Below, piece by piece: positions 864 to 26,109 of a stretch of 32,000 nt of DNA; within the stretch, counting starts at the first letter, position 1; each line of letters opens with the position of its first letter. The DNA comes from Polynucleobacter necessarius. GTDB taxonomy: Bacteria > Pseudomonadota > Gammaproteobacteria > Burkholderiales > Burkholderiaceae. The notes under the pieces are model-generated. The model searched no databases, was not told where the DNA came from, and saw only the letters and a program-made list of their open reading frames with translations. The DNA lies in contig NZ_LT606950.1 in the NCBI RefSeq assembly GCF_900095195.1, positions 1,221,946 to 1,253,945 of the forward strand, written 5' to 3'. The position numbers and the translations under genes are program-made.

Positions 864-2237
864 TTGCGGCGCGATCCAATGGATCGACATACTCATGCGA
901 CCCATTCTGGCGCCCCGAAACGAATTCCCAAAAAATCCCATCGTATTGACCCGCACCTACTGTCAAAAAACGCCGTCAAAATTACCCAAACGTTGCAGCA
1001 AGCTGGCTTTGAGGCGTTCATCGTGGGTGGTGCAGTACGCGATCTCGTCTTAGGCATCGCGCCAAAAGATTTTGATGTAGCCACCAATGCTACCCGATCA
1101 AGTACAGCGACTATTTCGGAAGGCGCGTCTGATTGGTCGCCGCTTCCAGATTGTGCATGTGACGTTTTTTGGCAAGGGACACCCAGAAATTATTGAAGTC
1201 TCAACCTTCCGAGCTTTACTCAGTAACGCTGGAGACCATGTTGCCAAGAGCGGTCGTATTTTGCGTGACAACGTATGGGGCTCACAAGGTGAAGATGCTA
1301 CGCGACGCGACTTCACCATCAATGCCATGTATTACGCCCATCAACCGAGACTGTACTCGACTACCACGGTGGTATGGTCGATATGCAAAAGAAAACCTTA
1401 CGCATGATTGGTGATCCTACAAAGCGCTATCGCGAGGATCCAGTACGGATGTTAAAAGCAATTCGGTTTGCTGCTAAAACTGGCTTTACTTTAGATGCCG
1501 ATACTCGTGCGCCGATCGCCAAGTTTGGCAAACTATTACACGATGTTCCGCCGGCCAGACTCTTTGATGAAACTCTTAAGCTTTTGATGTCTGGTTATTC
1601 ATGGTCAGCAATTCAAGGCTTAAAGGATGCCGGACTTCACCATGGATTGCCTCCATTGCTCGATCATATCCTCGATGACAACGAAGCTTCAAAGGGAGCT
1701 AATGATTTTGTGAAATTGGCGCTGGCCAACACCGATCAGCGAATTCAGTCGGGCAAGAGTGTCTCGGCAGGATTTTTATTCGCAACGCTTCTGTGGCCCG
1801 ATCTACTAAAAAATTGGCAAGCCAATATCGCCAAAGGCATGGCCAATATTCCAGCTCTTCAAGGTGCGATGGATGAGACGATTGCCACCCAAAGTAGTGG
1901 CATAACCATCCAACGTCGCTTTGAGAGCGATATGCGAGAAATTTGGTCTATGCAATCGCGCTTTGAAAAGCGGGTTGGTCGCTATCCCTATCGACTGATT
2001 GAATCGCCCCGTTTAAGGGCAAGCTATGACTTTATGCTGCTCCGTTGCGCCACAGGAGAACAAAATCCATCTTTAGGCGAGTGGTGGACCAGCTTCATCG
2101 CCGCCGATCCCGCTGGCCAGGAAGCACTTTTGGCGAGCGCCAAAAGTGAACCGGGAAATACTGCCGGCACTCCCACAAGAAGGCGTCGCCGCAGAGAACC
2201 CAAATCCCCTGCCGCACCAGAGTCTACTCCGGGCTAA
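864..2237 (+). pseudogene. pcnB: poly(A) polymerase I, split into three frames by two frameshifts
   Basis: Three overlapping ORFs (864-1196, 1087-1407, 1374-2237) join into one PcnB-like sequence. Segment 1 ends ...FIVGGAVRDLVLGIAPKDFDVATNAT, segment 2 reads PDQVQRLFRKARLIGRRFQIVHV...RRDFTINAMYY, and segment 3 reads (D)PSTETVLDYHGGMVDMQKKTLRMIGDPTKRYREDPVRMLKAIRFAAK. The frame switches at the CCC run 1093-1095 (net +1) and at about 1336 (1-bp loss, tattacg^cccatca). Read from the start, translation stops at 1194-1196. The true start may lie upstream of 864. Confidence 0.85.
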
Positions 2238-2289
2238 GCAAGTTTCGAAAAATTTCGGTAAAGTAATTCCATAACGATTTTGGAAGCAT

Positions 2290-2817
2290 ATGGCACGAGC
2301 ATTTATCGGATTTGGCGGAAATATTGGCGATACGCGTCAGCTCATTACTGACGCTATTGTTTGCCTAGCGCAACGTTCCGAATTGCATATTGTTGCAAAA
2401 AGTTGCTTCTATCAAAGCGCTCCTGTTGAAGCACTCGGCGGTGACTATATTAATGCCGTGATTGAAATCGAAACACAATTGACCCATTACGGTCTTTTGC
2501 ATGTTTGCCAAGCCATCGAACAAGAATTCAGCAGGGAACGTCCTTACGCTAATGCCTCTCGCACTCTTGACCTTGACATTTTGTCTTATGAAGGCGTTAC
2601 TCAAAATGAAACTGAGCTAATGCTTCCGCATCCAAAAATCATTGAACGCTCTTTTGTATTGCTTCCACTACTCGAAATCGCCCCCGACTTCTTTCTGCCC
2701 AATTTTGGCGAACTCAAGGCCTATCTCCCGAAAGTAGCTCATCAGCGCATTGAAAAACTCCCTTGTCGCAACTGTGATTGCGGGGGAAATGCTGTTTATA
2801 GCCAAACAGCACATTAA
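2290..2817 (+). CDS. folK: 2-amino-4-hydroxy-6-hydroxymethyldihydropteridine diphosphokinase (HPPK)
   Basis: 175-aa ORF with the HPPK pattern (IGFGGNIGD..., RTLDLDIL, LPHPKIIERSFVLLPL). It sits directly after pcnB, as in many proteobacteria. Confidence 0.85.
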   Translation: MARAFIGFGGNIGDTRQLITDAIVCLAQRSELHIVAKSCFYQSAPVEALGGDYINAVIEIETQLTHYGLLHVCQAIEQEFSRERPYANASRTLDLDILSYEGVTQNETELMLPHPKIIERSFVLLPLLEIAPDFFLPNFGELKAYLPKVAHQRIEKLPCRNCDCGGNAVYSQTAH

Positions 2818-2834
2818 TTCATTAAACTCTCGCC

Positions 2835-3134
2835 ATGGGTTACTTACAGGGCGACAAGCCAATCACAATTACTAAGCTCCCGCTATGCATGCTGAGGGTG
2901 AAAAAATTTCAATGCTAACGGCACATTCCAACTATCGGGATTGGTGCGGGCCCAGATTGCTCAGGCCAAGTATTGGTTCTGCAAGATATGCTGGGCATAA
3001 GCCCAGGCAGACCCCACAAGTTCGTGAAGAACTTTATGGAAAGTCACCAATCGATCGAGGCTGCAGTCAAAGCCTATGTGCGTGAGGTGAAATCCGGTAA
3101 GTTCCCCGGGCCTGAGCACGGCTTTGCAGGCTAA
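2835..3134 (+). pseudogene. panB: remnant of 3-methyl-2-oxobutanoate hydroxymethyltransferase (about 0.5 kb internal deletion plus a frameshift)
   Basis: The N-terminal piece MGYLQGDKPITITKLP (frame of 2835) continues as [14 protein letters not shown] in the frame of 2885, implying a 1-bp loss near 2879-2883. From about 2925 a third frame reads [69 protein letters not shown] (stop 3132-3134), which is the PanB C-terminus. The roughly 170 central codons are absent. Confidence 0.85.
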
Positions 3135-3146
3135 GACTTCCTAGCT

Positions 3147-4277
3147 CTAACTAAAGAAGCTTTTTACACCCTCAAACCAGCCTTTTTGTTGGGGACTGTG
3201 TTTATCACCTGCGGATTTGAGGCTGTCATCAAATTTCTGCAGTAATTGCTTCTGTTCATCCGTAAGCTTTACTGGGGTCTCGACCAGAACATGAACAAAG
3301 AGATCGCCCACTAAGGTTGAGCGCAACCCTTTAATTCCTTTGCTACGTAATCGGAAAGTTTTTCCGGTTTGCATTCCCTCTGGAATGGCGAGCTCTACTC
3401 GACCCGAGAGTGTAGGCACCTCGATTTCACCACCAATGGCAGCGGTTGCAAATGAGATGGGTAATTGCACATGCAGGTCACTGCCATCCCGCTCAAATAC
3501 TTTGTGAGGCTTTATGCGAACCTCAACATAAAGGTCGCCAGATGGTCCGCCATTAATGCCTGGTTCACCATTACCCACTGAGCGCACACGCATTCCATCA
3601 TCAATGCCCGCCGGGATTTTAATCTCTAGAGTTTTTTGCTCTTTGTGCTTACTGGTCCCATGACAAGTCTTGCAAGGCTTAGGAATGTATTCACCAGTTC
3701 CACGGCATTTTGGACAGGTCTGCTGCATGGAGAAAAAACCTTGCTGTACACGGACTTGACCATGACCATCGCAGGTTGAGCACCTTTCTGCTTTAGTACC
3801 CGGTTTTGCACCGGTTCCATGACAGGGCTTGCAATCGCTCCAGCTGGGCACCCGAATTTGCGTTGTGTAGCCCTCGGCTGCCTGTTCAAGCGTGATGTCC
3901 ATGCTGTAGCGAAGATCTGCGCCCTTATAGACTTGTGGGCCAGAATGACGACCCCCTTGACCAAAGATATCGCCAAAGATATCGCCAAAGGCGTCTGCAA
4001 ATCCACCGCCACCAAAGCCACCGCCGAAGCCACCACCCACTGAGGGATCCACACCAGCGTGACCGTATTGATCATAGGCAGCGCGCTTATTGGGATCGCT
4101 TAGCGTTTCGTAAGCTTCTTTTGCTTCTTTAAATTGAGCTTCGGCCGTTTTGCTATCAGGGTTGCGATCAGGGTGATACTTCATCGCCAGCTTACGATAG
4201 GCTTTTTTAAGCTCCAGATCGCTAGCACCTTTTGCTACCCCAAGTACTTCATAAAAATCGCGTTTACTTTTAGGCAC
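3147..4277 (-). CDS. dnaJ: molecular chaperone DnaJ
   Basis: 376 aa with a GTG start preceded by GAGAGGAA. It has a J-domain with HPDRNP, a G/F region, and four CxxCxG motifs ([32 protein letters not shown]). Confidence 0.95.
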
Positions 4278-4306
4278 GGCCTATTCCTCTCAACAACTTC
4301 AATGGC

Positions 4307-4331
4307 ACAAGTCGGCACGAGGCCGACTTGT
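4307..4331 (-). other. perfect 10-bp stem / 5-nt loop between dnaK and dnaJ
   Basis: ACAAGTCGGC-acgag-GCCGACTTGT, with stems at 4307-4316 and 4322-4331. No U-tract follows on the transcribed (minus) strand, so it is not a canonical terminator. Confidence 0.6.
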
Positions 4332-4378
4332 TATTTAAGGATTTCTGAAAATACGTTAACGAATAGTTGAATTCAGAA

Positions 4379-6310: not shown

Positions 6311-6371
6311 AATGACTCCAAAAAATGAAATTACTTTGTTGTACTTCTAATGAAGTATTCCGATAGACCCT

Positions 6372-6399
6372 AGATGGGGTCTAAACAGGGAAATTCAAG
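6372..6399 (-). promoter_or_regulatory. sigma-32 (RpoH) type heat-shock promoter of dnaK
   Basis: The minus strand reads CTTGAAt-N13-CCCCATCT. The -35 is the reverse complement of 6394-6399 and the -10 is the reverse complement of 6372-6379. The E. coli-type consensus is CTTGAAA-N13/14-CCCCATNT. It lies about 60 nt upstream of the dnaK ATG. Confidence 0.75.
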
Positions 6400-6410
6400 G
6401 GGAGAAATGC

Positions 6411-6436
6411 AAAAAAGGCAGAAAACTGCCTTTTTT
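6411..6436 (-). terminator. intrinsic terminator downstream of grpE (symmetrical A6/T6 flanks)
   Basis: aaaaaaGGCAGaaaaCTGCCtttttt; the stem is GGCAG (6417-6421) / CTGCC (6426-6430) and can be extended by the A/T flanks. It sits between the grpE stop (6469) and the dnaK promoter. Confidence 0.7.
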
Positions 6437-6468
6437 AGTCTTTTTTAGAACTTTTCAGCTAATTTGAT

Positions 6469-7038
6469 CTATTTTGGGGCGCTGACGGTGACAAGGGCGG
6501 GTCTGAGTACGCGATCCGCAACGGTATACCCCCGCTGCAAGACAGACACTACCGTATTTGGCTCCCGCTCAGACGACACGGACGCAATTGCCTGGTGGTG
6601 ATGGGGATCAAACTTATCGCCCACGGCAGGATTAATTTCAGTCATACGGCCTTTTTCAAAAGCAGACAACAATTGCTTCAAGGTAATCTCTAAGCCCTCT
6701 TTGAAAGCCTTGGCATCACCCGCATCCGTATTCAACGCAGCATAAAGACTATCCGTTACAGGGACGAGATGCTCGGCAAAACTTTCAATAGCAAATTTAT
6801 GCGCTTTAGCAATATCTTCAACAGCGCGACGACGAATATTTTCGCCCTCTGCCTTGGCGCGCAAAAAGTTATCCTGCAAGTCAGACGCCTTCTGATTCAG
6901 TTCGGCAATTTCCTGTTCAGGAGTCTTGGTAGTTGGAGTTTCTGTTGCCGCATCCGCTGCTGGTTCAACTGCTGAACTCTCCTGCTCAGGAGATGAATGT
7001 TGATTTTCTTGTGTCATAGACAGTGATTCACTTTTCAA
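6469..7038 (-). CDS. grpE: nucleotide exchange factor GrpE
   Basis: 189-aa ORF with an acidic N-terminus followed by GrpE core similarity ([16 protein letters not shown]...DPHHHQAI...GY...RVLRPALV). The start is uncertain: TTG at 7038 or ATG at 7017. Confidence 0.9.
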
Positions 7039-7060
7039 TAATTAAGGCAATTGCTTTGTT

Positions 7061-8198: not shown

Positions 8199-9212
8199 TT
8201 ATGAACTTAACGCGCCTGATAACAACTTCGAGGTAATGTCGTCAATCGGAATGACACGATCATAGGCCATACGTGTTGGGCCAATACACCTAAGGCCCGA
8301 CGACTTGGCCATCAACGCTATAGGGGGCGCTGATAACAGCCAAATCCTCATAAGGCAGAAGATCACTCTTTCCACCAATAAAAATTTGAATACCATCTGC
8401 ATGACTAGATACATCGAGTAATTGCATCAACACAGACTTTTGCTCTAAAAGGTCAAACATCTTACGAAGTTTGTCGAGATTTGAACTAAGATCGCCAACA
8501 TTCAATGGGCGACGCTCACCTGATAGAACCATATCGCCACCACTCAAATCGTAGTTTGCAACGCCACTTTGCAAAGCGAGAGCCATGAGCCCAGAAATAT
8601 TGGCTCGCAAACTATCCAAATCTGACTTGAGATGCATGCGCACCTGCTCAAAACTTTTTCCAGCAAACTGCGTATTGATGTAATTACCAGCCTCGATGAG
8701 TTGACTTGGTGTGTAGTCTTGATCGGTAGGCAAAATGCGGTTTTGCACATCGCCCTCTGGCGTCACCATGATGAGCAAAATCTTGCCCTCGCCAAGACGA
8801 AGAAACTCAATATGTTTAAAAACCTGGGCTCGTTTGGACGTCATCACGACGCCAGCAAAATGCGTAAGATTGGACAAAATTTGTGCAGCGGAATTTAAAA
8901 CCCGTTGCGGGGAATCCGGCAATAAGCCCTTTTCCACCTCCCGAGCAGCAATTTCCTCCAGCGGACGTACTGTCACCATGGTGTCCACAAAGAGACGATA
9001 GGGTAGGAATTCGGCCTGCAGAGGTATGGGGGCTAGTCACCAAACCCATCTCCTCTAGGTCAGTCATCACATTTCGGATGGTGGCTGCAGACAGATCTAA
9101 ACCCGAAAAGCGCGATAAAGTACGCGAGCCAATGGGCTGCCACTCCTCGATATAGCGCTCGATGATAGCGCTCGATGTGGGTTTTGAGTAAGGCGCGGGA
9201 ACGTTCATCCAT
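8199..9212 (-). pseudogene. hrcA: heat-inducible transcription repressor HrcA, inactivated at three sites
   Basis: The ancestral start ATG is at 9212 and gives [17 protein letters not shown] 13-bp tandem duplication (9152-9177) shifts the frame. Next comes [50 protein letters not shown], followed by a second shift at about 9000. Then [15 protein letters not shown]...YSVDGQVVG is followed by a third lesion at 8283-8298 (the sequence passes through ..LGV.. in the third frame). The C-terminus IGPTRMAYDRVIPIDDITSKLLSGALSS* follows, with the stop at 8199-8201. Confidence 0.9.
9152..9177 (-). repeat. perfect 13-bp tandem duplication inside the hrcA 5' region
   Basis: The plus strand reads ATAGCGCTCGATG twice (9152-9164 and 9165-9177). 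Removing one copy restores the canonical HrcA N-terminus [30 protein letters not shown] from the ATG at 9212. Confidence 0.95.
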
Positions 9213-9249
9213 GGTGGAAGGGATTTTATGCCTATGGTTTAATCGTTAT

Positions 9250-10155
9250 ATGTTAAGCTTATCCCCAAATTCTTCCAAGAAGCCCTTTAAGCGGGTTGCG
9301 CTTGTCGGTAAATTTCATGCCGATGGGATCGAAGAGCATTTAAAAGACCTAGCCAAGCTAGTGGCTGGCCTAGGATGTGAGATCTTCATTGAATCTGAAA
9401 CAGCTACCCACCTGGGATTAAGTGGCTACCCAATAAAAACCCCTCAAGATTTTGCTGGGGCAATTGATTTAGTCGTCGTGTTGGGCGGAGACGGCACTAT
9501 GCTCGGGATCGCGCGCCAATTAGCAGGCAGCAATGTTCCCCTAGTCGGAATCAATATGGGTCGTCTCGGGTACATGACCGATATTCCCTTTCAGTCGGTA
9601 AAAGATACATTACCCAAAATTATTGCTGGCGAATATGAAGCAGACACCAGGACGTTGCTTGAAGGTGTTGTGCTACGCGACAAGCAAGAAATTAATCGTG
9701 CACTAGCCCTAAATGATGTGGTGGTTAATCGCTCTGGCATTTCTGGAATGGTGGAATTAGCTGTTCATGTGAATGGCTCCTTTATGTATATCCAACGATC
9801 AGATGGCCTGATCATCTCAACGCCAACCGGCTCTACCGCTTATGCATTGTCTGCCGGCGGACCAATTCTGCATCCGCATGTAGCGGGAATCTTGCTTGCG
9901 CCAATTGCCCCGCACTCTTTATCCAATCGTCCGATTGTCCTGCCTCAAGACAGCCTTACCGAGATTGAAATGGTCAATGGGCTTGATGTGATTGTTAATT
10001 TTGATATGCAATCCCAAACCAATTTGCAAAGCGGTGACCGAATTCAAGTGCGCCAATCTGATAAAACGATTGCTCTCTTGCATCCAAGCAACCACAGTGA
10101 CTACAAAACTTTGCGTGAGAAATTACACTGGAACGAATACCCATCGACATTTTGA
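9250..10155 (+). CDS. nadK: NAD(+) kinase
   Basis: The ORF was trimmed to the ATG at 9250 (MLSLSPNSSKKPFKRVALVGKF...) because the upstream extension overlaps hrcA. It carries the GGDGTML motif (VVVLGGDGTMLG) and the conserved ISTPTGSTAY motif. Confidence 0.9.
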   Translation: MLSLSPNSSKKPFKRVALVGKFHADGIEEHLKDLAKLVAGLGCEIFIESETATHLGLSGYPIKTPQDFAGAIDLVVVLGGDGTMLGIARQLAGSNVPLVGINMGRLGYMTDIPFQSVKDTLPKIIAGEYEADTRTLLEGVVLRDKQEINRALALNDVVVNRSGISGMVELAVHVNGSFMYIQRSDGLIISTPTGSTAYALSAGGPILHPHVAGILLAPIAPHSLSNRPIVLPQDSLTEIEMVNGLDVIVNFDMQSQTNLQSGDRIQVRQSDKTIALLHPSNHSDYKTLREKLHWNEYPSTF

Positions 10156-11849: not shown

Positions 11850-11857
11850 TAAAGAAC

Positions 11858-14668: not shown

Positions 14669-14738
14669 CTTAATACCGACTAAATCCTTGGATCCAGATG
14701 CTTGGCGCCTGCATTGAGGCTGACGGATAATAGAGGCC

Positions 14739-17700
14739 ATGCTGCAAAAAATCATCCCGCCTCGCCTAAAAAGCGTTTTTTCCAAACGCCCTACAGGGTT
14801 TGGCACTGACTGGTACAAGCGTATTCTGATACTAGTTAGCATCACAGCTATTCTCTTGCTGCTCATTGGGCACCTCAGCGTCCGGTTTATTGTTTGGCCG
14901 CAAATTGAAAAATCAAAGGCTTCTGTTGAAAAACTCATTGGTGCTCGGGTTGGCGTCCACGTATCCATCGACGATCTCAAAGTTTCATGGACGGGCATCA
15001 GACCCTCCTTTGAAATGGATGGCCTACGATTCAACAGTCCAGACAAAAGCAAATCATTACTGTCAATCTCCAAAATTTATGGCGAGCTCAGTTGGAAATC
15101 CTCTTATTACCTTGCGCCTTATTTTCATGAGATTCATTTTGAAAATGCTGAAATCTATGCGCAACGAAATTCAAAGGGTGATATTGCCATCGCCGGCATT
15201 TCGACTGACAGCGATAGCAATAGTTACTCCGCTGAAAACTGGCTTTTCTCACAGGATGCTATTGATGTTAGCAATGTCAACATCATTTGGGATGACCAGT
15301 TCAATAAGAAAACGCCTCAAAATATTGGCGTACAACGTTTAACCTTAAAAGATGGTATTCGTAGACACCAAGGATCAATTACTGTAAGCACCCCCTGGAA
15401 TAAGGGGCTAGCGGAAGTCAATGTTAACTTTGTACATCACCTGGGAGGTCAAGCAGGCAATTGGCATGACTGGATTGGTAACCTCTCTTGGGAAATCAAT
15501 GATCTCGATTTAAATCAAATTGCTAAGGACTTCAAAGTTAATCTCAGTAGCCTAGAGGGCAAGTTAAGCTCCAACGGCACCATAAAAATTGATAATGCCA
15601 AACCGGATGGCGGTGAGTTTTTTATCGCAGTCGATGATCTCGTCGTGCAATTATCGAAAAACGAAGATGCGATTGCTCTTGGAAGACTAGAAGCCAATCT
15701 CTTACAAGAGACAAACGATGGCTTGATTGCGGTCTCTACGAAATCTTTTGCGTGGCGTGAGATGGGTAGCCCTAAATCAGCACCACTCGATAGGCTCAGT
15801 CCGGTGACCTTCCGTTGGCGCCCACCAGGTGAGGATGGTGAAATTAAAGAATTTGGCTTTTCCTCACCCAAAATTTCTGTTGAGGACGTAGCACTATTTG
15901 CTCTAAATTTGCCACTTTCCAAAAAGGTTCATCAGTGGATCAAGGCATCGGCAGCAGAAGGCGAACTCGAAGACCTGGACATCCACTGGTCCGAAAGCAA
16001 ATCGCCATTATCTGCGCTCAATATCCCCGGGGGTTGGTTTAAGTCTAACAAATTGGATTTCAGCGTTAGCGCAAAACTCAACAACCTTAGCTTCAAGGGT
16101 ATTAATAAATCAATGCCATCGGTTACCAATCTTTCTGGCTTTGTTACTTCTACCCAAAAAGAAGGAAGTTTCTCCTTAAATTCCAAAGATCTTGGGCTCG
16201 AGGTTTACGAGTTATTAGAGGATCCAAATATTCAGCTTGACCGTGCTAATGGTCAAATTACTTGGTCCAAACAACGTGGTCACTGGAACATTAATACTAA
16301 AAAGTTGGCGCTGAGCAATCCACAAATTTCAACCACACTGAGTCTGAATTACATTTCAGGAAACCCAAAAGAAGCAGACTTTATGGCCCTAGATATGGAA
16401 TTTGATAAGGCCAACCTAAAAACAGCGTATCGCTATTTACCAGTAGGAATGGGGAAAGATGTCCGGCTCTATTTAAGCAAGGCATTTGATACGGGAGTGA
16501 TTCGCGATGGGCGTCTTCACATTAAGGGTAACCCCAACCAGGTACCGTTTTCCAATAAACAACAGGGTGAATTCAGTTTGACACTTCCCATCATTGGAGC
16601 AACATTTAGTCCCGTTCCAAACTTGTCGGTCAATCAAGGAACATGGTCAACCTTCAGTAATGTCAATGGCAATATTGAGATGACTAATGCAAACTTTGCT
16701 GTAGATATCAGCAAGGCAAACTATAAACAAATTGCTCTGGCCGACTTTCATGCTGCAATTGAAGATGTCAGCGCAAGACAGCTAATGCTGTCAGTCACTG
16801 GTAAAGCAAACGGTGAGGTGGCGCAAATGCTGGACTATTTTTATGCCTCTCCTCCTGGTAAAAGACATAGCAAGATTGAACAAAGCTTAAGAGTCAGCGG
16901 TCCAGTCAATTTAAATCTTGGGTTAAAAATTCCATTATCTGGTTCGGCCGATACCAATGTGGATTTGAAACTAACCCTTCCCGGCAATCGTGCGGAATGG
17001 AGTGGCATCCCGCCTTTTGAGAACCTAAAAGGCAATATTCGCATTACCGAAACGAATCCTGAGTTTGATACTGTTTCTGCAAATTTTCTAGGGGGCACGA
17101 TCAAGATTTCCAGTGCTGATCAACAAAACAGAGAAATATTCAACGTTACAGGAGAGGTGCAGACTCACTTTGTAAAAGACTACTTCGCAAATTCTACTCG
17201 CCCTGATTTAACCCCAATCCTAAATGCGATGAGCGGCGCCATTCAATACGATGGCAAGATCAGCTTCAATAAGCTGGGCAGCGACTCTAGCATTCGCTTT
17301 GATTTACGAAACTGTGGGTTAAATGCTCCTGCTCCCGTAAAAAAAATGGTAGGCACACCGTTATCTGGCGAGCTGAATATCAAAACTTTTGCGAGCGATA
17401 AAAGCAATCCCAATCGCGCTAGCTGGTCTGGAAAATTTGGTGATCTGTACTCTTTGCAAGGAGCGCTCGGCCGAGATGATGAAATTCGGCAAAGTATTGG
17501 TATTGGGGCTCAACCAAGCCTGCCTTCACAAGGCTTTAATCTAAATTTAGCGACTAATGAATTCAATTTAGATGCATGGCAAGATTTTTTAGAAGTCAAA
17601 AAATCGGCTCAGCCTCAATCCTTTGAAACGAATTCAAACAATGCTCAAATAACAGTTCAAGCCAAAAAAATGATCTTCCTCGATCGCTCATGGCAAGATG

Positions 17701-18851
17701 TGAATGTTGTTGCAAATCGCAAAAAAAATGTATGGGATGTACGCCTAGGCGCACCATTAATATCTGATCAGCTTCAATATCAACCTGCTAGCAAAGTAAA
17801 CCCTAGCGGGCTTTTTAGCGGGCGACTTGCAAAACTTGTCTTGCCCGACCCCATTCCAAACCCTAGCACGCAAGCAAATACCCCAAAGAAATCACTTACC
17901 CCTGAATCTATACCGAGCCTCGATATCACGATTGATAATTTTGCTTGGTCAAAAGCACAATTAGGCCAAATCAAGATTAAAACGAGTACGCTGGATAACG
18001 TACTGAAAATTCAGTCTATTCAAACAAGCAATCCGCAGGGCACCAATACTATTAGTGGTCAGTGGCGAGGCAGCACAAAAAATACGCCTGATCATAGCTC
18101 TCTGAGTATCAGCATGGATATCAAAGACGCTGGGCAAATCATTGCGCACTGGACTCCACAAAAGTCCGTTGAGGGCGGCCAAGGAAAAGTAACTGCGGAC
18201 ATAGAATGGGATGGAGCGCCTTTTAAACCGCAATTTGAAACTCTTTCTGGAAAAGCAAGTCTTAATTTAGAAAAAGGCTGCTTACTGGAAGTGAACTCTA
18301 GTGGTGCAAAACTTTTGGATGTTCTTAGCCTCCAAAGGCTATTCCGCTTTGCGACACTCGATCTACAGGGTAGCCTCGGAAATATCGTGACCAAGGGCAC
18401 CCCGTTTAGCTCGATTAGTGGCAACTTTGACATTGCTAATGGAGTCGCGCAAACCCAACAATTCAACATGAATCTTGATCAAGCGCGCGTGGCCATGAGT
18501 GGTCAAATTAATTTTCCTAAGCAGACTCAAGATTTACGAATTACTATTTTCCCAACGATTGATGCCACAGCAGGTTCACTCGCAGCTTTTGCGATTAATC
18601 CCATCGTTGGTTTAGGCGCCCTGGTTGGTCAATACCTTCTGACTAGCCAAATCAATCGTAGCCTGCAATCGGATTACCTAGTCCAAGGATCTTGGGAGAA
18701 TCCAGAAGTTATCCCGCTGGATCAAAAAGGGCAACCTGTCGATTCATCAACGCTGGATTCCATTCGTAGAAAAGAGTTGCTTAAAGAGCAAACTAAGCCT
18801 AGCCTGGATAACCCAGCCAACTCTAGCCGACCTTCAAATCCCGGTAATTAG
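14739..18851 (+). CDS. large YhdP/AsmA-like envelope protein (TIGR02099/DUF3971-type)
   Basis: 1370-aa uninterrupted ORF with a single N-terminal transmembrane helix (ILILVSITAILLLLIGHLSV). The body looks long and beta-rich, and the C-terminal region has hydrophobic segments. It is divergent from glnE, the arrangement I recall for Burkholderiales. The family call rests on architecture and context. Confidence 0.7.
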   Translation: MLQKIIPPRLKSVFSKRPTGFGTDWYKRILILVSITAILLLLIGHLSVRFIVWPQIEKSKASVEKLIGARVGVHVSIDDLKVSWTGIRPSFEMDGLRFNSPDKSKSLLSISKIYGELSWKSSYYLAPYFHEIHFENAEIYAQRNSKGDIAIAGISTDSDSNSYSAENWLFSQDAIDVSNVNIIWDDQFNKKTPQNIGVQRLTLKDGIRRHQGSITVSTPWNKGLAEVNVNFVHHLGGQAGNWHDWIGNLSWEINDLDLNQIAKDFKVNLSSLEGKLSSNGTIKIDNAKPDGGEFFIAVDDLVVQLSKNEDAIALGRLEANLLQETNDGLIAVSTKSFAWREMGSPKSAPLDRLSPVTFRWRPPGEDGEIKEFGFSSPKISVEDVALFALNLPLSKKVHQWIKASAAEGELEDLDIHWSESKSPLSALNIPGGWFKSNKLDFSVSAKLNNLSFKGINKSMPSVTNLSGFVTSTQKEGSFSLNSKDLGLEVYELLEDPNIQLDRANGQITWSKQRGHWNINTKKLALSNPQISTTLSLNYISGNPKEADFMALDMEFDKANLKTAYRYLPVGMGKDVRLYLSKAFDTGVIRDGRLHIKGNPNQVPFSNKQQGEFSLTLPIIGATFSPVPNLSVNQGTWSTFSNVNGNIEMTNANFAVDISKANYKQIALADFHAAIEDVSARQLMLSVTGKANGEVAQMLDYFYASPPGKRHSKIEQSLRVSGPVNLNLGLKIPLSGSADTNVDLKLTLPGNRAEWSGIPPFENLKGNIRITETNPEFDTVSANFLGGTIKISSADQQNREIFNVTGEVQTHFVKDYFANSTRPDLTPILNAMSGAIQYDGKISFNKLGSDSSIRFDLRNCGLNAPAPVKKMVGTPLSGELNIKTFASDKSNPNRASWSGKFGDLYSLQGALGRDDEIRQSIGIGAQPSLPSQGFNLNLATNEFNLDAWQDFLEVKKSAQPQSFETNSNNAQITVQAKKMIFLDRSWQDVNVVANRKKNVWDVRLGAPLISDQLQYQPASKVNPSGLFSGRLAKLVLPDPIPNPSTQANTPKKSLTPESIPSLDITIDNFAWSKAQLGQIKIKTSTLDNVLKIQSIQTSNPQGTNTISGQWRGSTKNTPDHSSLSISMDIKDAGQIIAHWTPQKSVEGGQGKVTADIEWDGAPFKPQFETLSGKASLNLEKGCLLEVNSSGAKLLDVLSLQRLFRFATLDLQGSLGNIVTKGTPFSSISGNFDIANGVAQTQQFNMNLDQARVAMSGQINFPKQTQDLRITIFPTIDATAGSLAAFAINPIVGLGALVGQYLLTSQINRSLQSDYLVQGSWENPEVIPLDQKGQPVDSSTLDSIRRKELLKEQTKPSLDNPANSSRPSNPGN

Positions 18852-18857
18852 ATTCTT

Positions 18858-19672
18858 ATGAGCAATTCCGCAACGCTAAAGATCGCGTCGATACAAATGG
18901 TCTCCTCTTCAGACCTACAGGAAAACTTAACTACAGCAGGTAGGCTTATTGATGCGGCAGCTAAAGATGGCGCAAGAGTTATTGCCCTTCCTGAGTACTT
19001 TTGCATAATGGGACTGAAAGACACGGATAAGGTCGATATTCGAGAGCCATTTGGTATTGGCCCCATACAAGACCAATTAGCTAATTTTGCAAAAGATAAT
19101 TCCATTTACTTGATTGCAGGAACTATTCCGCTGGAAATGCAAGAGCCTGGAAAAGTACTTAATTCCATACTGGCTTTTAATCCTGATGGTCAGCAGATCG
19201 GATGCTATGACAAGATTCATTTGTTTGGCTTTCAAACCAAGACCGAACGCTATCAGGAATCGGAAACGATAGAAGCAGGAAATCATCCAAGCGTTCTCAA
19301 GATTTTCCATGACAACTGCGGATGGACTTTTGGTCTCAGCCTTTGCTATGACCTCCGGCTCCCTGAACTCTATCGTGCCATGGGTATCGTCGATTGCCAC
19401 ATTATTCCAGCAGCCTTTACCTACACTACCGGCAAGGCGCATTGGGAAATTCTATTGCGCGCCCGCGCCATTGAAAATCAATGCTATGTCCTGTCATCGG
19501 CCCAAGGGGGGTCCCAAAAATCAACGCCGTACTTGGGGGCAGAGCCTCCTAGTTGACCCCTGTAGCAGATTTACCTGAAGGAGAGGGTTTTATTTCAGGT
19601 GTTTTAAGCAAAGAAAAAATAAACGAGGTACGCTCTCAGTTACCAGCCCTTGCTCACCGAAAGCTCTACTGA
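18858..19672 (+). pseudogene. carbon-nitrogen hydrolase (nitrilase superfamily), two frameshifts near the 3' end
   Basis: The Glu-Lys-Cys catalytic context is present (ALPEYF, YDKIHLF, GLSLCYDLRLPELY). After ...SSAQGG the homologous sequence moves to the next frame (PKNQRRTWGQSLLVDP) at the G6 run 19506-19511, consistent with a 1-bp gain. It moves again at about 19561 to VADLPEGEGFISGVLSKEKINEVRSQLPALAHRKLY* (stop 19670-19672). Confidence 0.85.
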
Positions 19673-19677
19673 ATCAC

Positions 19678-21166
19678 ATGACTGCACCCGAAGCATTATT
19701 TCCAGCGAATTGGGCAAAAGCCAAAAAACAAGCAGACCTCATCAAAGTAGCCAAATCGATTCTCCTAGAGCCGACTGGCTTATCTGAACAAGATCTTCAT
19801 CGTACTTTTGGAACTCTTTTTACTCACCATCTTGGTGATGCCGATCTTTATTTTCAACACACGCGTAGCGAGAGCTGGAGCCTTGAAGAGGGAATAGTCA
19901 AATCTGGCAGCTTCAGCATTAATCAAGGCGTTGGGGTACGAGCAATTTATAGGGATAAACAGCGTTTGCATACTCTGATGAAATCAACCTAGAAGCACTA
20001 AGCAAGGCTGCTAAAGCTACACGAGTAATCGGCCCTCAAGGCGGTAAACACGCTGTAGCAAAGAAAATATTTAGCCCGGCTTCCAACAAGCTGTACTCCG
20101 ACCTTAACCCACTTGACTCCTTACAACCCAAGGAAAAGATTGCCCTCCTTGAGGGTATTGAGCGTCGTGCAAAGGCACGCGATCCGCGCATTATTCAGGT
20201 CATGGCAAGTCTAGCTGGTGAGTTTGATGTCGTATTGGTCGCCAGAGCCAATGGCTTACTCGCGGCAGATATTCGTCCGCTAGTACGAGTTTCTGTTCAC
20301 GTCATCGCCGAACAAAATGGGCGCCGTGAATCGGGCTCATCGGGTAGTGGCGCACGCCATGACTATCTTTACTTCGATGTAGATCTGATTAATCGCTATG
20401 TTGATGAAGCCGTGGATGGGTGCACTCATTAATTTAGAGTCGCGCCCTGCGCCCGCTGGTCCGATGACGGTGGTAATGGGGTCCGGCTGGCCAGGCGTTC
20501 TTTTGCACGAAGCAGTTGGCCACGGACTTGAAGGCGACTTTAATAGCAAAGGATCTTCTGCATTTGCAGGTCGCATTGGCGAACGCGTTGCTGCCAAAGG
20601 AGTCACAGTAGTCGATGATGGCACCTTATCTGGACGCAGAGGCTCCCTCAATATTGATGATGAAGGCACTCCAACGCAATGCACCACGTTGATTGAGGAC
20701 GGGATCTTAAAAGGCTACATTCAGGATAGCTTGAATGCCAGATTCATGAAAATGCCACTTACTGGGAACGGTCGTCGTGAAAGCTTTGCCTCTCTACCAA
20801 TGCTACGCATGACCAACACATACATGCTTGCCGGCAAAGACGACCCCCAAGAAATAGTAGCAAGTATTAAGCGGGGTTTATATGCAGTCAACTTTGGTGG
20901 CGGTCAGGTCGATATCACCAGCGGTAAATTTGTCTTCTCTGCATCAGAGGCATATTGGGTAGAAAACGAAAAAATCCAATACCCCGTCAAAGGCGCCACT
21001 ATTATCGGCAGTGGTCCAGAGTCCTTAAAGCAGGTATCGATGATCGGTAACGACCTGAAATTGGATGGCGGCGTTGGTGTTTGCGGTAAGGAAGGTCAAA
21101 GTGTGCCAGTCGGGGTTGGGCAGCCAAACACTGAAGATTGATAGCCTTACCGTGGGCGCCGCCTAA
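19678..21166 (+). pseudogene. tldD: metalloprotease TldD, three single-base frameshifts
   Basis: Piece 1 ends ...GDADLYFQHTRSESWSLEEGIVKSGSFSINQGVGVRAIYRDK, with a 1-bp loss in the A-run 19957-19959. Piece 2 runs TAFAYSDEINLEAL...RYVDEAVD, with a 1-bp gain in GGGT at 20418-20421. Piece 3 runs [41 protein letters not shown]...VGQP, with a 1-bp gain in the A-run 21126-21128. Piece 4 is [12 protein letters not shown] (stop 21164-21166). Confidence 0.9.
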
Positions 21167-21196
21167 TATTGGCAAATTACGGCTTAAAATAGCCGT

Positions 21197-22321
21197 ATGA
21201 GCCAACAAAATACAAATCCCGCAAATTGGTACTCTGCTGTTGATAAAACATCGGATACCGACGATCAACGCATTGACAATATTTCAGTTCTGCCACCGCC
21301 AGAACACTTGATCCGTTTTTTTCCTATTTCTGGAACACCAACAGAAGCCCTCATCAGCAAAACTCGCAAAAAGACTCGCGACATCATTCATGGCAAAGAT
21401 GATCGTCTGCTCGTCATCATTGGGCCATGCTCAATTCATGATTCAAGAGCTGCACTAAAGTATTGCCAACGGCTTTTGGGTGAGCGTGAGCGTTTTTCCG
21501 GTGAATTAGAAATCGTGATGCGCGTTTATTTTGAAAAACCACGCACTACCGTTGGCTGGAAGGGTTTAATTAATGACCCCTACCTTGATGAGTCTTATCG
21601 CATCGAAGAAGGTTTGCGACTTGCTCGCCAAGTCTTAATGGAGATCAATCGCCTTGGTATGCCTGCAGGCAGTGAATTCTTAGATGTTATTTCTCCGCAA
21701 TACATTGCCGATCTCATCTCATGGGGCGCGATTGGTGCTCGCACGACAGAAAGTCAAGTTCATCGTGAATTAGCTTCTGGTCTCTCTGCACCGATCGGAT
21801 TTAAAAATGGTACCGATGGCAATATTAAGATTGCAACTGACGCCATTTTGGCAGCGGGTCGCCCACACCACTTTTTATCCGTTCATAAAAACGGTCAGGT
21901 ATCGGTTGTAGAAACCAAAGGCAATAAAGACTGCCACGTTATTTTGCGTGGCGGTAAAGAGCCGAACTATGAAGCAAAATTTGTTCAGGCAGCCTGCTCC
22001 AAGCTCGAGGCTGGCAAGCTTCATGGCAGTTTGATGGTTGATTTATCTCACGCCAATTCCAGCAAAAAACATGAGCGTCAAATCGTAGTTGCAGATGATG
22101 TTGCTCAACAAATTGAGTCTGGATCAAATCAGATTTTTGGCGTCATGATTGAAAGCCATCTCAATGATGGTGCTCAGAAATTTACGCCAGGCAAAGATGA
22201 CCCCAGAAAACTGGAGTATGGAAAAAGTATCACCGATGCCTGTATCAATTGGGACGATTCAGTGCAAGTACTCGAGCGTCTTGCGGCCGCAGTTAAAAAA
22301 CGCAGAAGTAAGAAAAAGTAA
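21197..22321 (+). CDS. aroG: 3-deoxy-7-phosphoheptulonate (DAHP) synthase, class I
   Basis: 374 aa, collinear with class I-alpha DAHP synthases (GPCSIHD, KPRTTVGWKGLINDP, WGAIGARTTESQVHRELASGLS, KNGTDG). The feedback-specificity isoenzyme cannot be told from the sequence. Confidence 0.92.
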   Translation: MSQQNTNPANWYSAVDKTSDTDDQRIDNISVLPPPEHLIRFFPISGTPTEALISKTRKKTRDIIHGKDDRLLVIIGPCSIHDSRAALKYCQRLLGERERFSGELEIVMRVYFEKPRTTVGWKGLINDPYLDESYRIEEGLRLARQVLMEINRLGMPAGSEFLDVISPQYIADLISWGAIGARTTESQVHRELASGLSAPIGFKNGTDGNIKIATDAILAAGRPHHFLSVHKNGQVSVVETKGNKDCHVILRGGKEPNYEAKFVQAACSKLEAGKLHGSLMVDLSHANSSKKHERQIVVADDVAQQIESGSNQIFGVMIESHLNDGAQKFTPGKDDPRKLEYGKSITDACINWDDSVQVLERLAAAVKKRRSKKK

Positions 22322-22334
22322 GGTAGGGCTCAGC

Positions 22335-22368
22335 AAAAAAGAGACTAATTTATTTAGTCTCTTTTTTT
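22335..22368. terminator. bidirectional intrinsic terminator between convergent aroG and the adenosyltransferase gene
   Basis: aaaaaaGAGACTAAtttatTTAGTCTCttttttt, with stems at 22341-22348 and 22354-22361. An A6 run lies on one side and a T7 run on the other. Confidence 0.8.
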
Positions 22369-22917
22369 CGTGCTTCCAAAGGACATCCGTTCCGCCGGCA
22401 GCACGATTCAAGATTCGTGCGATCACAAAAAGAAGGTTAGACAAGCGATTTACGTATTGCCTGGGGGAATCATACAAGGGCTCCTCCCAACCTAAACGCA
22501 CAATTGAGCGCTCTGCCCTTCGACAAACCGTTCTACAAAATATGCTTGAGCAGCAGCACGCGTACCGCCCGGCAGAATAAATTCTGTTAATGGCGGGAGT
22601 TGTTGGTTGTGCTTTTCAAGCCAGACATCCAACTGCGCAACGTGTTTTGGATTGAGCAATTTGTAATTTGGAATACAGAGTTCGCCACCTAAATCAAATA
22701 AATCGTGCTGAATCTGTAAAAAGAGAACTTTGAGCTCCTCGGCAATCGATTCTGGGATGGCTTCGGTCATCAAAACACCGATTTCTGAATTGAGCTCATC
22801 AATATCGCCCATTGCACAAATACGCAAATGATCCTTTTCAACGCGACTTCCGTCTCCAAGGCTAGTCATGCCAGCATCACCTGTTCTGGTGGTGATTTTT
22901 GATAGTCGATTACCCAT
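22361..22917 (-). pseudogene. ATP:cob(I)alamin adenosyltransferase (PduO/MMAB type), frameshifted; 3' boundary uncertain
   Basis: From the ATG at 22917 the sequence reads MGNRLSKITTRTGDAGMTSLGDGSRVEKD...IQHDLFDLGGELCIP...EFILPGGTRAAAQA. At about 22537-22546 the homologous sequence jumps frame (1-bp loss) to CRTVCRRAERSIVRLG...RQYVNRLSNLLFVIARILNRAAGGTDVLWKHEKK. That frame has no stop until 22256, so it runs through the terminator hairpin into the antisense of aroG. An A-run length change of +1 or -1 at 22362-22368 would create a stop inside the hairpin. Confidence 0.8.
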
Positions 22918-22935
22918 GAGCTTAATTATAGGTAA

Positions 22936-24453
22936 ATGGCTAAAATGAATGTCATGAATATGGTGACCACACCCCCCGATATTGCAGCAATTGGCGCCCT
23001 TCAGTCCAAACTGGTATCGGCTTTGCGCCCGATCCTTCCAGGGCATGCCTTACTCTGGGAGCCGGAGGACACGATTCCGTATGAATGTGATGGTCTTGCG
23101 GCATATCGTCGGATGCCTCTAGCGGTTGCCCTTCCAGAGACAGAAGAACAAGTCGCCAAGATTTTGAGAGTTTGTTTTGAGATGCAAATACCGGTTGTCC
23201 CACGCGGATCCAGAACGGGCTTATCGGGTGGTGCCATGCCAATTTCTCAAGGTCTAGTGCTATCACTCGCCAAACTCAAAAAAATTATCAGTATTGTTCC
23301 CTTTACGAGAACAGCCGTTGTGCAACCAGGTGTTCGCAATCTAGCTATTTCTGAAGCAGTCGCTCACCTCGGTTTGTATTACGCCCCAGATCCTTCTTCT
23401 CAAATTGCGTGCTCGATTGGCGGAAATGTTAATGAAAACTCTGGTGGCGTGCACTGTTTAAAGTATGGCTTGACCTTGCATAACGTTTTGCGAGTACGTG
23501 GCGTACTTATGAACGGCGATGTTGTCGAATTTGGCAGTCTAGCGCCAGACTCACCAGGCTTAGATTTAATGGCCATCATGATGGGCAGTGAAGGCATGTT
23601 GGCAGTGGTTACTGAAGTTACTGTGAAATTAGTTGCCAAGCCAAAACTAGCCCGCGTCATTATGGCCAACTTTGACGATATTGAAAAAGGTGGAAATGCT
23701 GTTGCCGCCATCATTGCCGCAGGCATTATTCCTGCGGGCCTGGAGATGATGGATAAAGCCGCCACTCGCGCCGTTGAAGAATTCGTACACGCTGGGTATG
23801 ACCTTGATGCTGCAGCCATGTTGCCTGGTTGTGAATCGGACGGCACACCAGAAGAGGTTGCCGAAGAAATAGAACGCATGACCAAGGTGCTCGAACAATC
23901 TGGCGCAAGCGGTATTCAGATTTCTAAAGATGAGACTGAGCGCTTAAAATTTTGGAGCGGCCGCAAAAACGCTTTCCCTGCTGCAGGTCGCTTAGCGCCA
24001 GATTACTACTGCATGGATGGAACGATTCCCCGCCGACACATTGCAACTCTGTTAAAGCGTATTCAAGGTATGGAAGAAAAATACGGTTTGGGATGTTTGA
24101 ATGTATTTCATGCAGGGGATGGCAATATGCATCCGCTCATTTTATTTAATGGCGCCGATCAGGAAGAATGGCATCGCGCGGAAGAATTCGGCACTGAAAT
24201 TTTGGAAGCCTGTGTTGAACTCGGCGGCGCCATCACTGGCGAACATGGCGTTGGAATCGAAAAAATCAACTCCATATGCGTGCAATTTGGAGGGGGTGAA
24301 CGGGAATCCTTTTGGGGTGTCAAAGCCGAATTTGATCCGGAGAAATTGCTTAACCCTGACAAGGCCACCCCAACCTTAAACCGTTGCGCAGAATATGGGC
24401 GCATGCGGATCAGTGGCGGGAAGTTACCCCATCCTGAATTGGAGCGTTTTTAA
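22936..24453 (+). CDS. glcD: glycolate oxidase subunit GlcD (FAD-linked oxidase), apparently intact
   Basis: 505 aa with a PCMH-type FAD-binding domain (VVPRGSRTGLSGGA). The C-terminal region reads FWSGRKNAFPAAGRLAPDYYCMDGTIPRR and NVFHAGDGNMHPLILF, and the protein ends LPHPELERF like GlcD. The start codon choice (22936 or a nearby downstream ATG) is uncertain. Confidence 0.88.
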   Translation: MAKMNVMNMVTTPPDIAAIGALQSKLVSALRPILPGHALLWEPEDTIPYECDGLAAYRRMPLAVALPETEEQVAKILRVCFEMQIPVVPRGSRTGLSGGAMPISQGLVLSLAKLKKIISIVPFTRTAVVQPGVRNLAISEAVAHLGLYYAPDPSSQIACSIGGNVNENSGGVHCLKYGLTLHNVLRVRGVLMNGDVVEFGSLAPDSPGLDLMAIMMGSEGMLAVVTEVTVKLVAKPKLARVIMANFDDIEKGGNAVAAIIAAGIIPAGLEMMDKAATRAVEEFVHAGYDLDAAAMLPGCESDGTPEEVAEEIERMTKVLEQSGASGIQISKDETERLKFWSGRKNAFPAAGRLAPDYYCMDGTIPRRHIATLLKRIQGMEEKYGLGCLNVFHAGDGNMHPLILFNGADQEEWHRAEEFGTEILEACVELGGAITGEHGVGIEKINSICVQFGGGERESFWGVKAEFDPEKLLNPDKATPTLNRCAEYGRMRISGGKLPHPELERF

Positions 24454-25160
24454 TGGCCGCAACCAGTTCAACTATTGAAGGATTTCGTGAGCAGATTCTT
24501 AATGCCGCTAAGAATAAAGTGCCCCTTTCTATTGAGGGTGGTGGCACTAAATCTTGGTATGGAAATCCCAACTCCTTCACAAAACTAGATACCCGCGCAT
24601 ACCTTGGTATTTTGGAATACCAACCTGAAGAGTTGGTGATCACCGCTTGTGCGGGCACTCCGCTAAAAGAGATCGAAACGGCTCTTGCAGAAAAAAATCA
24701 GGTGTTAGCTTTTGAACCGCCTCACTTTGGTGAGCATGCTACGTTTGGCGGCGCCATTGCCTCAGGATTGGCGGGTCCTGGTCGAATTAGTGTTGGCAAT
24801 TTTCGAGACTTTGTTTTAGGCACTCGTATTCTGGATGGCAAGGGACAGGACCTTTCCTTTGGCGGCAAAGTAATGAAGAACGTTGCCGGCTATGATGTAT
24901 CGCGTTTGATACCAGGATCGATGGGAACCTTATCCCTTCTCCTAGAAGCATCCGTCAAGGTATTGCCCAAGCCTGCCGCGACTTCAACACTACGTTGTCA
25001 AATTTCTCAGGCAAAAGCTTTGGAAATTCTGAACACTTGGGCTGGTCAACCTCTGCCACTATCCGCAAGCTGCTGGATTGGGGATGACCACAAAGATGGT
25101 GAGCTCACCTTTCGTCTTTCTGGCGCAGCAGCTGCAGTAAAGGCTGCGATTCCATTGATG
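24453..25160 (+). pseudogene. glcE: glycolate oxidase subunit GlcE, 3' third deleted
   Basis: The ATG overlaps the glcD stop (TAATG). The GlcE-like sequence runs through ...GGKVMKNVAGYDVSRLIPGSMGTLSLLLEASVKVLPKP...RLSGAAAAVKAAIPLM. The expected distal part (FW..LREQ...GGHAT...FDP..IFNPGRM) is missing in every frame. The junction coordinate is approximate. Confidence 0.75.
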
Positions 25161-25161
25161 A

Positions 25162-26109
25162 GCTCGCTGGTTAATGCACACGAAATTTCCCTTGAAGGAA
25201 GGCTTAACAAATCCAGCATCATTCAATTCAGCGATGGCATTGGGACGTTTTGTGCGCCCTCTGCTGCCAAGCAGCATTCAGCGCAAGATTCCGGTCACAG
25301 AGTAAAGCGTTATCGCAATCAACCGATCCATACGCTCGACCTCAAGCGCAACATACTCGCAAGATGCTGATTTTGGAAGGATGCGTTCAACCTGGCATGC
25401 TGCCAAATATCAATTCCGTTACTGCGCGTGTGTTGGATGCTCTTAAGATTCAACTCATCAGCGCTCCCAACGCCACCTGTTGCGGTGCATTGCGTTATCA
25501 CCTCAATGACCAAGATGGGGGTTTAAGCAATGCCAAACAAAATATTGATGCTTGGTGGCCACTAGTTGAACAAGGGGTTGGAGTTATTGTGATGACAGCT
25601 TCTAGCTGCGGGGTCATGGTGAAGGACTACGGTCACTTATTAGCAAATGACCCAATTTATGCCCATAAAGCAAAAAAAATTTCTGAATTAACCAAAGATA
25701 TTGCAGAAATTTTGCCAACGTTGCAAAGCAAACTAGTAGATCTCATTGGTGCAGATCAGAAACCTGGAGTGGTTTGCCACCCGCCTTGCACCCTGCAGCA
25801 TAGCCAACAAATTCTGGGCAAAGTTGAAGGTCTCTTGATAAGCTTAGGCATTAGCGTACGACTCTGTAACGATAACCATCTTTGCTGTGGCTCAGCTGGC
25901 ACATACTCCGTTACTCAACCTGAGCTCTCCGAGCGCAGCTTCGTATGAACAAGCTGACCAACTTAAATACAGCCTGCAAAGAATCTGGAGCAGAAGTTAT
26001 TGTTTCGGGAAATATTGGGTGCATTACCCATCTGCAACAAGACGAGAATCCAGTATTGCACTGGATTGAAATCGTCGATCAACTCATTCAAAAGCCCAAC
26101 AATACTTAA
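25162..26109 (+). pseudogene. glcF: glycolate oxidase Fe-S subunit GlcF, 5' third deleted plus two frameshifts
   Basis: GlcF similarity begins mid-protein in the frame of 25162 (ARWLMHTKFPLKEGLTNPASFNSAMALGRFVRPLLPSSIQRKIPVTE*). It shifts at about 25303 to KALSQ...RKMLILEGCVQPGMLPNINSVTARVLDAL...CCGA...HLCCGSAGTYSVTQPELSE. It shifts again at about 25935 (1-bp loss) to QLRMNKLTNLNTACKESGAEVIVSGNIGCITHLQQDENPVLHWIEIVDQLIQKPNNT* (stop 26107-26109). No CxxCxxCxxxCP ferredoxin motif is present in any frame. Confidence 0.8.

Follow-up and report, generated by a model that had tools for sequence, protein, structure and literature searches.

Are bacterial genes that can be read only by switching frames really dead, or were they damaged on the way into the database? 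This question is raised by a 32-kb stretch of bacterial DNA (contig NZ_LT606950.1, positions 1,221,946 to 1,253,945; ~47% G+C), hereafter called the window, in which 8 of the 25 complete genes are disrupted: pcnB, panB, hrcA, a gene for a CN-hydrolase, tldD, a gene for a PduO-type adenosyltransferase (pduO), glcE, and glcF. Based on alignments with free-living relatives, independent assemblies, and exact protein matches, we conclude, with a probability of about 0.93, that this chromosomal DNA belongs to Polynucleobacter necessarius, an obligate endosymbiont in the cytoplasm of Euplotes ciliates, whose reductive genome evolution is at an early stage and still going on.

Disrupted genes and their lesions

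The lesions were placed by nucleotide alignment to intact orthologues, and the frames were checked with tblastn of intact reference proteins. At all eight loci, this gave several frames or missing blocks per gene. We counted 19 disrupting lesions, consisting of 1 start-codon loss, 16 small indels, and 2 deletions of ~518 and ~770 to 790 nucleotides (Table 1). No nonsense mutations were found in the corrected frames of the window pseudogenes. The corrected HrcA, TldD, PduO, GlcE, and GlcF proteins all score above the curated NCBIfam cut-offs (HrcA, 253.6 bits against TIGR00331, with a cut-off of 197.2; TldD, 641 bits against NF008006, with a cut-off of 513), and the uncorrected open reading frames (ORFs) are fragments. 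The 17 other complete genes, 23.7 kb in total, have the length of their orthologues, and each gives a single full-length tblastn match in a single frame.

Table 1. Coordinates of the disrupted genes and of glcD in the window
Feature	Position	Strand	Lesions or state
pcnB (poly(A) polymerase) pseudogene	837..2237	+	start ATG->ATA 837-839; -2 at ~1092; -1 at ~1336
panB (ketopantoate hydroxymethyltransferase) remnant	2835..3134	+	-1 at ~2880; ~518-nucleotide deletion at ~2925-2931
hrcA (heat-shock repressor) pseudogene	8199..9212	-	+13 at 9166-9178; -8 at 9001; -1 at 8297; -1 at 8287
CN-hydrolase (nitrilase superfamily, deaminated-glutathione-amidase-like) pseudogene	18858..19669	+	-2 at 19516; -11 at 19562
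tldD metalloprotease pseudogene	19678..21170	+	-1 at 19956; +1 at 20418; +1 at ~21126-21128; in-frame -3 at 21158
PduO-type ATP:cob(I)alamin adenosyltransferase pseudogene	22352..22917	-	-1 at 22540; -1 at 22369 (A8->A7)
glcD, intact ORF of 505 amino acids	22936..24453	+	full-length match; private in-frame +3 (GGT) at 23827-23829
glcE remnant	24453..25189	+	codons ~1-248 of 383 left; 3' part deleted
glcF remnant	25190..26110	+	starts at codon ~116 of 424; -2 at 25298; +2 (GC) at ~25930-25936

The free-living set used for comparison contains eight loci (L001, L004, L008, L009, L010, L012, L014, and L017). The orthologues of the disrupted genes are intact in these loci, and none of the window lesions is present in any of them. 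Each free-living locus has at most one disrupted gene, compared to 8 of 25 in the window. The only free-living frameshift is a -1 in glcF at L001:20042 (JBGAIU010000025.1), in an otherwise intact metagenome-assembled genome (MAG) that was assembled with OPERA, and it may have arisen in the assembly and not reflect a genuine pseudogene.

An earlier note, made from the letters of the window, had called the same eight loci dead, and the alignments to the free-living orthologues found all of them disrupted at the places it gave. Its estimate of about 17 lesions agrees with the 19 counted here, and the roughly 23 kb of coding sequence in which it saw no lesion corresponds to the 17 full-length genes. 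It had started the affected range at position 864, which is too late, as pcnB begins at 837. It had also described preserved synteny, no insertion sequence (IS) elements or repeats at the lesions, and decay in situ by small indels and medium deletions, all of which is borne out by the alignments and the repeat search. By its own account, identical frame structures in free-living relatives would have undone its reconstructions; the eight intact loci do not have them.

In pcnB, the segment between 1092 and 1336 is out of frame (81 codons), with a stop codon at 1194 to 1196, and the three ORF fragments match positions 2 to 60, 58 to 133, and 146 to 420 of the NCBIfam pcnB profile. The reference for this alignment was the intact orthologue of 466 amino acids in the metagenomic locus L004. 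The start codon overlaps the stop codon of the upstream HAD phosphatase gene, and a single G-to-A change at 837 to 840 (ATGA to ATAA) removed the pcnB start but left the HAD gene with a stop (TGA to TAA). For panB, only codons ~1 to 30 and 204 to 272 of 272 are left, matched in frames 3, 2, and 3; the C-terminal 70 amino acids match profile positions 197 to 263, and the gene is intact (271 to 272 amino acids) in L004 and in two further Polynucleobacter necessarius records, L019 and L020. The hrcA pseudogene, aligned with L004, L001, and the MAG locus L002, is spread over three tblastn frames, and its 13-nucleotide insertion is a perfect tandem duplication, CATCGAGCGCTAT, at 9166 to 9178. Four frame segments were found for tldD. 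A single deletion of ~770 to 790 nucleotides, with its junction at 25189/25190, removed the end of glcE together with the first ~115 codons of glcF.

It could be argued that the interrupted genes still function, through frameshifting, either programmed or transcriptional, or as split subunits. Transcriptional slippage has been reported in other endosymbionts, the A7 run in pduO could in principle allow it, and paired compensating shifts in pcnB (-2 and -1) and glcF (-2 and +2) restore the downstream frame. However, the out-of-frame segments of 80 to 210 codons contain stops, the start codon of pcnB is lost as well, and whole blocks of codons are missing (~170 in panB, ~135 in glcE, and ~115 in glcF). 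Moreover, the positions of the frameshifts are not conserved even between strains that differ by 1.3%. We consider continued function of these genes extremely unlikely.

Independent assemblies of the same region

Another objection is that the frameshifts arose as errors in sequencing or assembly, such as homopolymer miscalls or collapsed regions, in a genome that is otherwise intact. Eight of the lesions are indeed single-base indels, some of which lie beside short runs (A4 to A3 in tldD, A8 to A7 in pduO), and errors would also fit with the lack of nonsense mutations and with the lack of extra amino acid change in tldD and the CN-hydrolase gene. On the other hand, many lesions affect several bases (-2, +2, -8, -11, the 13-nucleotide tandem duplication, and the deletion of 518 nucleotides), and only 1 of the 16 small indels is located in a homopolymer of at least 5 bases. 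The 23.7 kb of neighboring genes contain no lesion at all. When 19 lesions were distributed over the 25 genes at random in proportion to length, a mean of 12.5 genes was affected in the simulation, and the probability of eight or fewer under this uniform model was 0.004.

The decisive evidence comes from independent contigs (Logan and ENA), which were found through an exact YggS match and a close relative of QueA. These are L022 and L023 (both SRR32119647), L024 (SRR14234079), L025 (ERZ27248707), and L026 (SRR8208349); they overlap the window at 16746 to 32000 and are 98.5 to 99.3% identical to it (98.5 to 99% for those from SRR32119647 and SRR14234079); they come from the same species. One of them, L023:1-14960, is contig _3034 of the Logan assembly of SRR32119647. 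Five lesions are common to the window and the independent assemblies: the -1 at 19956 and the +1 at 20418 in tldD and the A8-to-A7 change in pduO, all shared with L023, and the glcE-glcF deletion and the -2 in glcF (25298), which are identical in L023 and L024. As they are reproduced in assemblies from independent read sets, these five lesions are genuine. A check in an independent assembly had been proposed in the earlier note, and it did not refute its reconstructions.

Other lesions are private to the window and missing from the independent assemblies, namely, the -2 and -11 in the CN-hydrolase gene, the +1 at 21128 in tldD, the -1 at 22540 in pduO, and the +2 in glcF; the in-frame -3 at 21158 in tldD is also private to the window strain. 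Conversely, L023 carries eight lesions that the window does not have: three in tldD and five in the CN-hydrolase gene, one of which is a deletion of 298 nucleotides. The CN-hydrolase gene was therefore broken independently in the two strains.

Some points weigh against our conclusion. The lesions in pcnB, panB, and hrcA are known only from the window assembly. In addition, the amino acid change in tldD and the CN-hydrolase gene is no greater than in the intact L002 copies, which would fit a very recent death but also an error. For tldD, the error explanation is countered by the two lesions that are common to an independent assembly, and for the CN-hydrolase gene it is countered by the five other lesions in L023, although the two lesions of the window are not reproduced elsewhere. 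Finally, the host and the intracellular location are taken from the name given by the depositor or RefSeq rather than from direct evidence. Taken together with the lesions that break pduO, glcF, hrcA, and glcE at other sites in L002, and pduO and glcF in a third lineage (L018), the recurring lesions, which include both early tldD frameshifts and the deletion of ~780 nucleotides, make error a very improbable explanation. The lesions are not assembly artefacts.

A separate observation is that there are no nonsense mutations among the window lesions, compared to 5 among ~16 lesions in L002. This asymmetry also weighs against our conclusion.

Decay among strains of the same species

The comparison between the window and L023, two strains that are ~1.3% apart, also allows the decay itself to be followed. 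In 4.2 kb of pseudogene sequence, there are 62 substitutions and 14 indel events, versus 107 substitutions and a single, in-frame indel event in 10.3 kb of intact genes, so that the pseudogenes have a clear excess of indels (Fisher p = 2e-5). The density of mismatches in the pseudogenes, 0.0147, comes near the synonymous divergence (0.018); the pseudogenes evolve neutrally after their inactivation. The private indels comprise 8 deletions (327 nucleotides) and 6 insertions (7 nucleotides), which results in a net loss of DNA. The presence of both shared and private lesions at this low divergence means that decay continues among the strains. For the intact genes, the pooled ratio of nonsynonymous to synonymous change (pN/pS) is 0.35, which is high for a bacterium and fits weakened selection, although the ratio comes out too high when very close strains are compared.

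The genes did not all die at the same time. At sites that are invariant in the free-living relatives, tldD and the CN-hydrolase gene have changed no more than the intact copies in L002, and hrcA and glcF have changed about twice as much. Based on this, the deaths of tldD and the CN-hydrolase gene appear to be very recent and those of hrcA and glcF somewhat older. The earlier note had called the pseudogenes young, which agrees with both these data and the NCBIfam scores of the corrected proteins. An excess of change at invariant sites was also seen in dnaK, tldD, glcD, and pduO of the window and L002, but overall this could not be separated from their position in the tree, and we did not use it as evidence.

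The intact glcD gene may be the next to go. Between the window and L023, its pN/pS is 0.83, compared to 0.35 for the other intact genes pooled, and its two partner subunits have both been lost; in L002 and L018, glcD itself is broken. It is possible that glcD is already unconstrained, but as the difference in pN/pS is not significant (Fisher p = 0.13), we rate it only as a candidate. The neighbors of the dead genes had been described as pristine in the earlier note, and this stands as far as full-length ORFs are concerned; glcD is perhaps not pristine in its evolution.

These results fit with a simple course of events. Functions that are dispensable inside the host would lose purifying selection. 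In the window, these would be RNA polyadenylation, pantothenate synthesis, the HrcA repressor, a nitrilase-superfamily amidase, the TldD protease, cobalamin adenosylation, and glycolate oxidase. The released genes would then, at a near-neutral rate, gather small, slippage-type indels and now and then lose several hundred bases at once, with a net loss of DNA, and the genes that are still needed would remain under a weakened but real selection that purges indels. The intracellular lifestyle of the strain, the dispensability of each function, and the loss of expression are what we infer from this pattern.

Identity and phylogenetic position

Nine window proteins have exact matches in RefSeq, all of them named Polynucleobacter necessarius (taxid 576610): DnaJ (WP_114663031.1), DnaK (WP_114663033.1), HemH (WP_114663037.1), AroG (WP_114663045.1), YggS (WP_114663047.1), ProC (WP_114663049.1), UbiA (WP_114663050.1), RecG (WP_114663051.1), and QueA (WP_114663052.1). 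Since its emendation, the name P. necessarius covers only obligate endosymbionts of Euplotes, whose genome is ~1.6 Mb in size and contains many pseudogenes (PMC5018217), and symbiont genomes of 1.5 to 1.9 Mb have been described (PMC9539572, PMC11253213). In agreement with this, the nine RefSeq proteins belong to a contig of 1,550,368 bp, compared to 2.0 to 2.3 Mb in free-living strains, and within the window 8 of the 25 complete genes are pseudogenes. Symbionts have been acquired from free-living strains repeatedly and independently (PMC9539572, PMC11253213). Neighbor-joining trees, built from 2,221 and 1,396 aligned residues, group the window with L002 as its sister, and this pair is nested among free-living Polynucleobacter, with L012 as the nearest free-living locus. 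As far as sequence can confirm it, the window belongs to the Euplotes endosymbiont lineage of Polynucleobacter, and the assignment that the earlier note had made to this lineage is upheld by the nine exact matches.

Could it instead be an ordinary free-living Polynucleobacter with background pseudogenes, or an accessory-gene region that would decay in every lineage? Streamlining is also seen in free-living Polynucleobacter genomes (PMC4285135), and the L001 MAG has its single -1 in glcF. However, none of the eight free-living loci has more than one disrupted gene, the affected genes are a conserved core that is present in all relatives, and the exact matches to P. necessarius are on a contig of 1.55 Mb, well below the size of free-living genomes (PMC5018217). 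We therefore give this explanation very little chance, and an endosymbiont in the course of genome reduction is the reading that we retain.

The reference loci are ~72 to 76% identical to the window at the DNA level, and the L002 MAG is 82% identical. Those obtained from metagenomes through DnaJ and AroG homologues are L004 to L007, L010, and L011; the same homologues led to two cultured free-living references, L008 (Polynucleobacter sp. AP-Melu-500A-A1) and L009 (P. hirudinilacicola), and L012, L014, and L017 were added by a metagenome scan. Scans of genome and metagenome collections with yhdP gave no relative closer than 83%, and when the YhdP protein was compared with species-representative genomes, all the records returned were Polynucleobacter.

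Parallel losses in other lineages

The sister locus L002 (L002:1-24089, CAZXSX010000001.1) comes from a MAG labeled "uncultured Polynucleobacter sp." (SRP342105_co2_15) and is itself eroding. It has its own frameshifts or stops in hrcA, glnE, pduO (a stop at codon 6), glcD, glcE, and glcF. None of these lesions occurs in the window, and L002 has kept tldD and the CN-hydrolase gene intact. L002 is probably an unrecognized symbiont. A third and distant lineage is represented by L018 (LT606951.1, 1.93 Mb, named P. necessarius), which is 73% identical to the window. In L018:11168-15707, pduO is frameshifted, glcD has two stops, and glcF is fragmented; glcE, tldD, the CN-hydrolase gene, and glnE are intact. 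This means that pduO and glcF were broken independently in all three eroding lineages, together with glcD and/or glcE.

Other losses are not universal, as pcnB, panB, and hrcA are intact in L019 and L020. The loss of panB implies that the window strain would depend on pantothenate. This loss appears to be lineage specific, because panB is intact in those two records and because a published comparison lists the Euplotes symbiont STIR1 as a prototroph for all vitamins (PMC5632650). The window, with its gutted panB, differs from STIR1 in this respect.

The hrcA gene was broken separately in the window (8199-9212) and in L002 (L002:3468-4481), and the adjoining dnaK, dnaJ, and grpE genes are intact. 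It might be that the loss of hrcA de-represses chaperones. The CIRCE operator of HrcA was not found in the window or in any of the 17 loci searched, so such a de-repression cannot be tied to dnaK and grpE, and the HrcA regulon would therefore lie elsewhere.

Gene content and gene starts

The window contains 25 complete genes and two that are truncated at its ends, hda on the left and tgt on the right. The order from the left is hda', a HAD histidinol-phosphatase gene, pcnB, folK, panB, dnaJ, dnaK, grpE, hemH, hrcA, nadK, and recN. It continues with glnE, a yhdP-family gene, the CN-hydrolase gene, tldD, aroG, pduO, glcD, glcE, glcF, yggS, proC, ubiA, recG, queA, and tgt'. Genes were named from NCBIfam matches and from the Pfam labels that their orthologues carry in related loci. 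The intact set consists of the HAD phosphatase gene, folK, dnaJ, dnaK, grpE, hemH, nadK, recN, glnE, yhdP, aroG, glcD, yggS, proC, ubiA, recG, and queA. The order is fully collinear with that in the free-living relatives and in all the references. A repeat search of the window found no repeat family longer than 25 nucleotides and no repeat or IS element at any lesion, and tRNA and Rfam scans of the window gave no match.

Two starts in the mechanical ORF list need attention. For glnE (11858-15073), the 1,071 amino acids listed are an overstatement, as the alignment with orthologues places the start at 14659, which gives 934 amino acids. For nadK (9175-10155), the start may be at 9175 or at 9250, which corresponds to 326 or 301 amino acids, and the 326 in the list may be too long. 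Apparent frameshifting gaps in yhdP and glnE were present in the alignments of all genomes, including the free-living ones; these are alignment artefacts in variable segments, and we rejected them as lesions because the ORFs are intact.

Significance and comparison with known systems

Polynucleobacter is among the few systems in which the onset of genome reduction can be observed, thanks to the close relationship between the obligate endosymbiont and its free-living relatives. The window is a clean example, in which the dead genes are recognizable, mobile elements are absent, deletions prevail, and selection on the surviving genes is weakened. Pseudogene-rich erosion free of IS elements, in parallel in separate Polynucleobacter symbiont lineages, was reportedly described by Boscaro et al. 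in 2013 (PNAS 110:18590) and 2017 (Nat Ecol Evol 1:1160). Our finding is a correct rediscovery of this published hallmark of P. necessarius and is already known. The added value is modest and lies in the lesion differences between strains, the L002 MAG as a second eroding lineage, and the repeated loss of glycolate oxidase and the PduO adenosyltransferase. The strain-level differences, the unlabeled eroding L002, and perhaps an intact but unconstrained glcD may be new by-products. More tentatively, several strains of the symbiont species, with shared and private lesions, are represented in the public read sets, and these might allow a polarized neutral indel spectrum and an order of gene death (for example, glcE and glcF first and glcD next) to be established; the independent breakage of hrcA could also have been favored through chaperone de-repression. 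We are doubtful that either point lies outside the published comparisons between lineages, but it is possible.

The window resembles STIR1 and the other Euplotes symbionts in the species name, a genome of ~1.55 Mb, the many pseudogenes, and the syntenic backbone (PMC5018217, PMC9539572, PMC11253213), as well as in its free-living Polynucleobacter ancestry and the parallel losses in separate lineages. The records are not of the same size, however: that of the window has 1,550,368 bp, STIR1 has 1.56 Mb, and three other P. necessarius records have 1.83, 1.91, and 1.93 Mb.

Massive pseudogenization is also typical of other recently host-restricted bacteria, such as Sodalis glossinidius, Serratia symbiotica, and Mycobacterium leprae. 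As in these organisms, many genes of the window are still recognizable but inactivated by frameshifts and deletions, with a deletional bias and weakened purifying selection. In Serratia and Sodalis, erosion is accompanied by IS proliferation and rearrangements (PMC4285135), whereas the window has perfect synteny and neither IS elements nor repeats, so its erosion is not driven by IS elements. The loss of regulators and of host-supplied pathways with retention of chaperones (here the intact dnaK, dnaJ, and grpE) is shared with Buchnera, "Ca. Kinetoplastibacterium," and "Ca. Pandoraea novymonadis." In ancient obligate endosymbionts, however, decay is complete and few pseudogenes remain (PMC5632650), whereas the remnants in the window still have ~85 to 97% protein identity to working orthologues.

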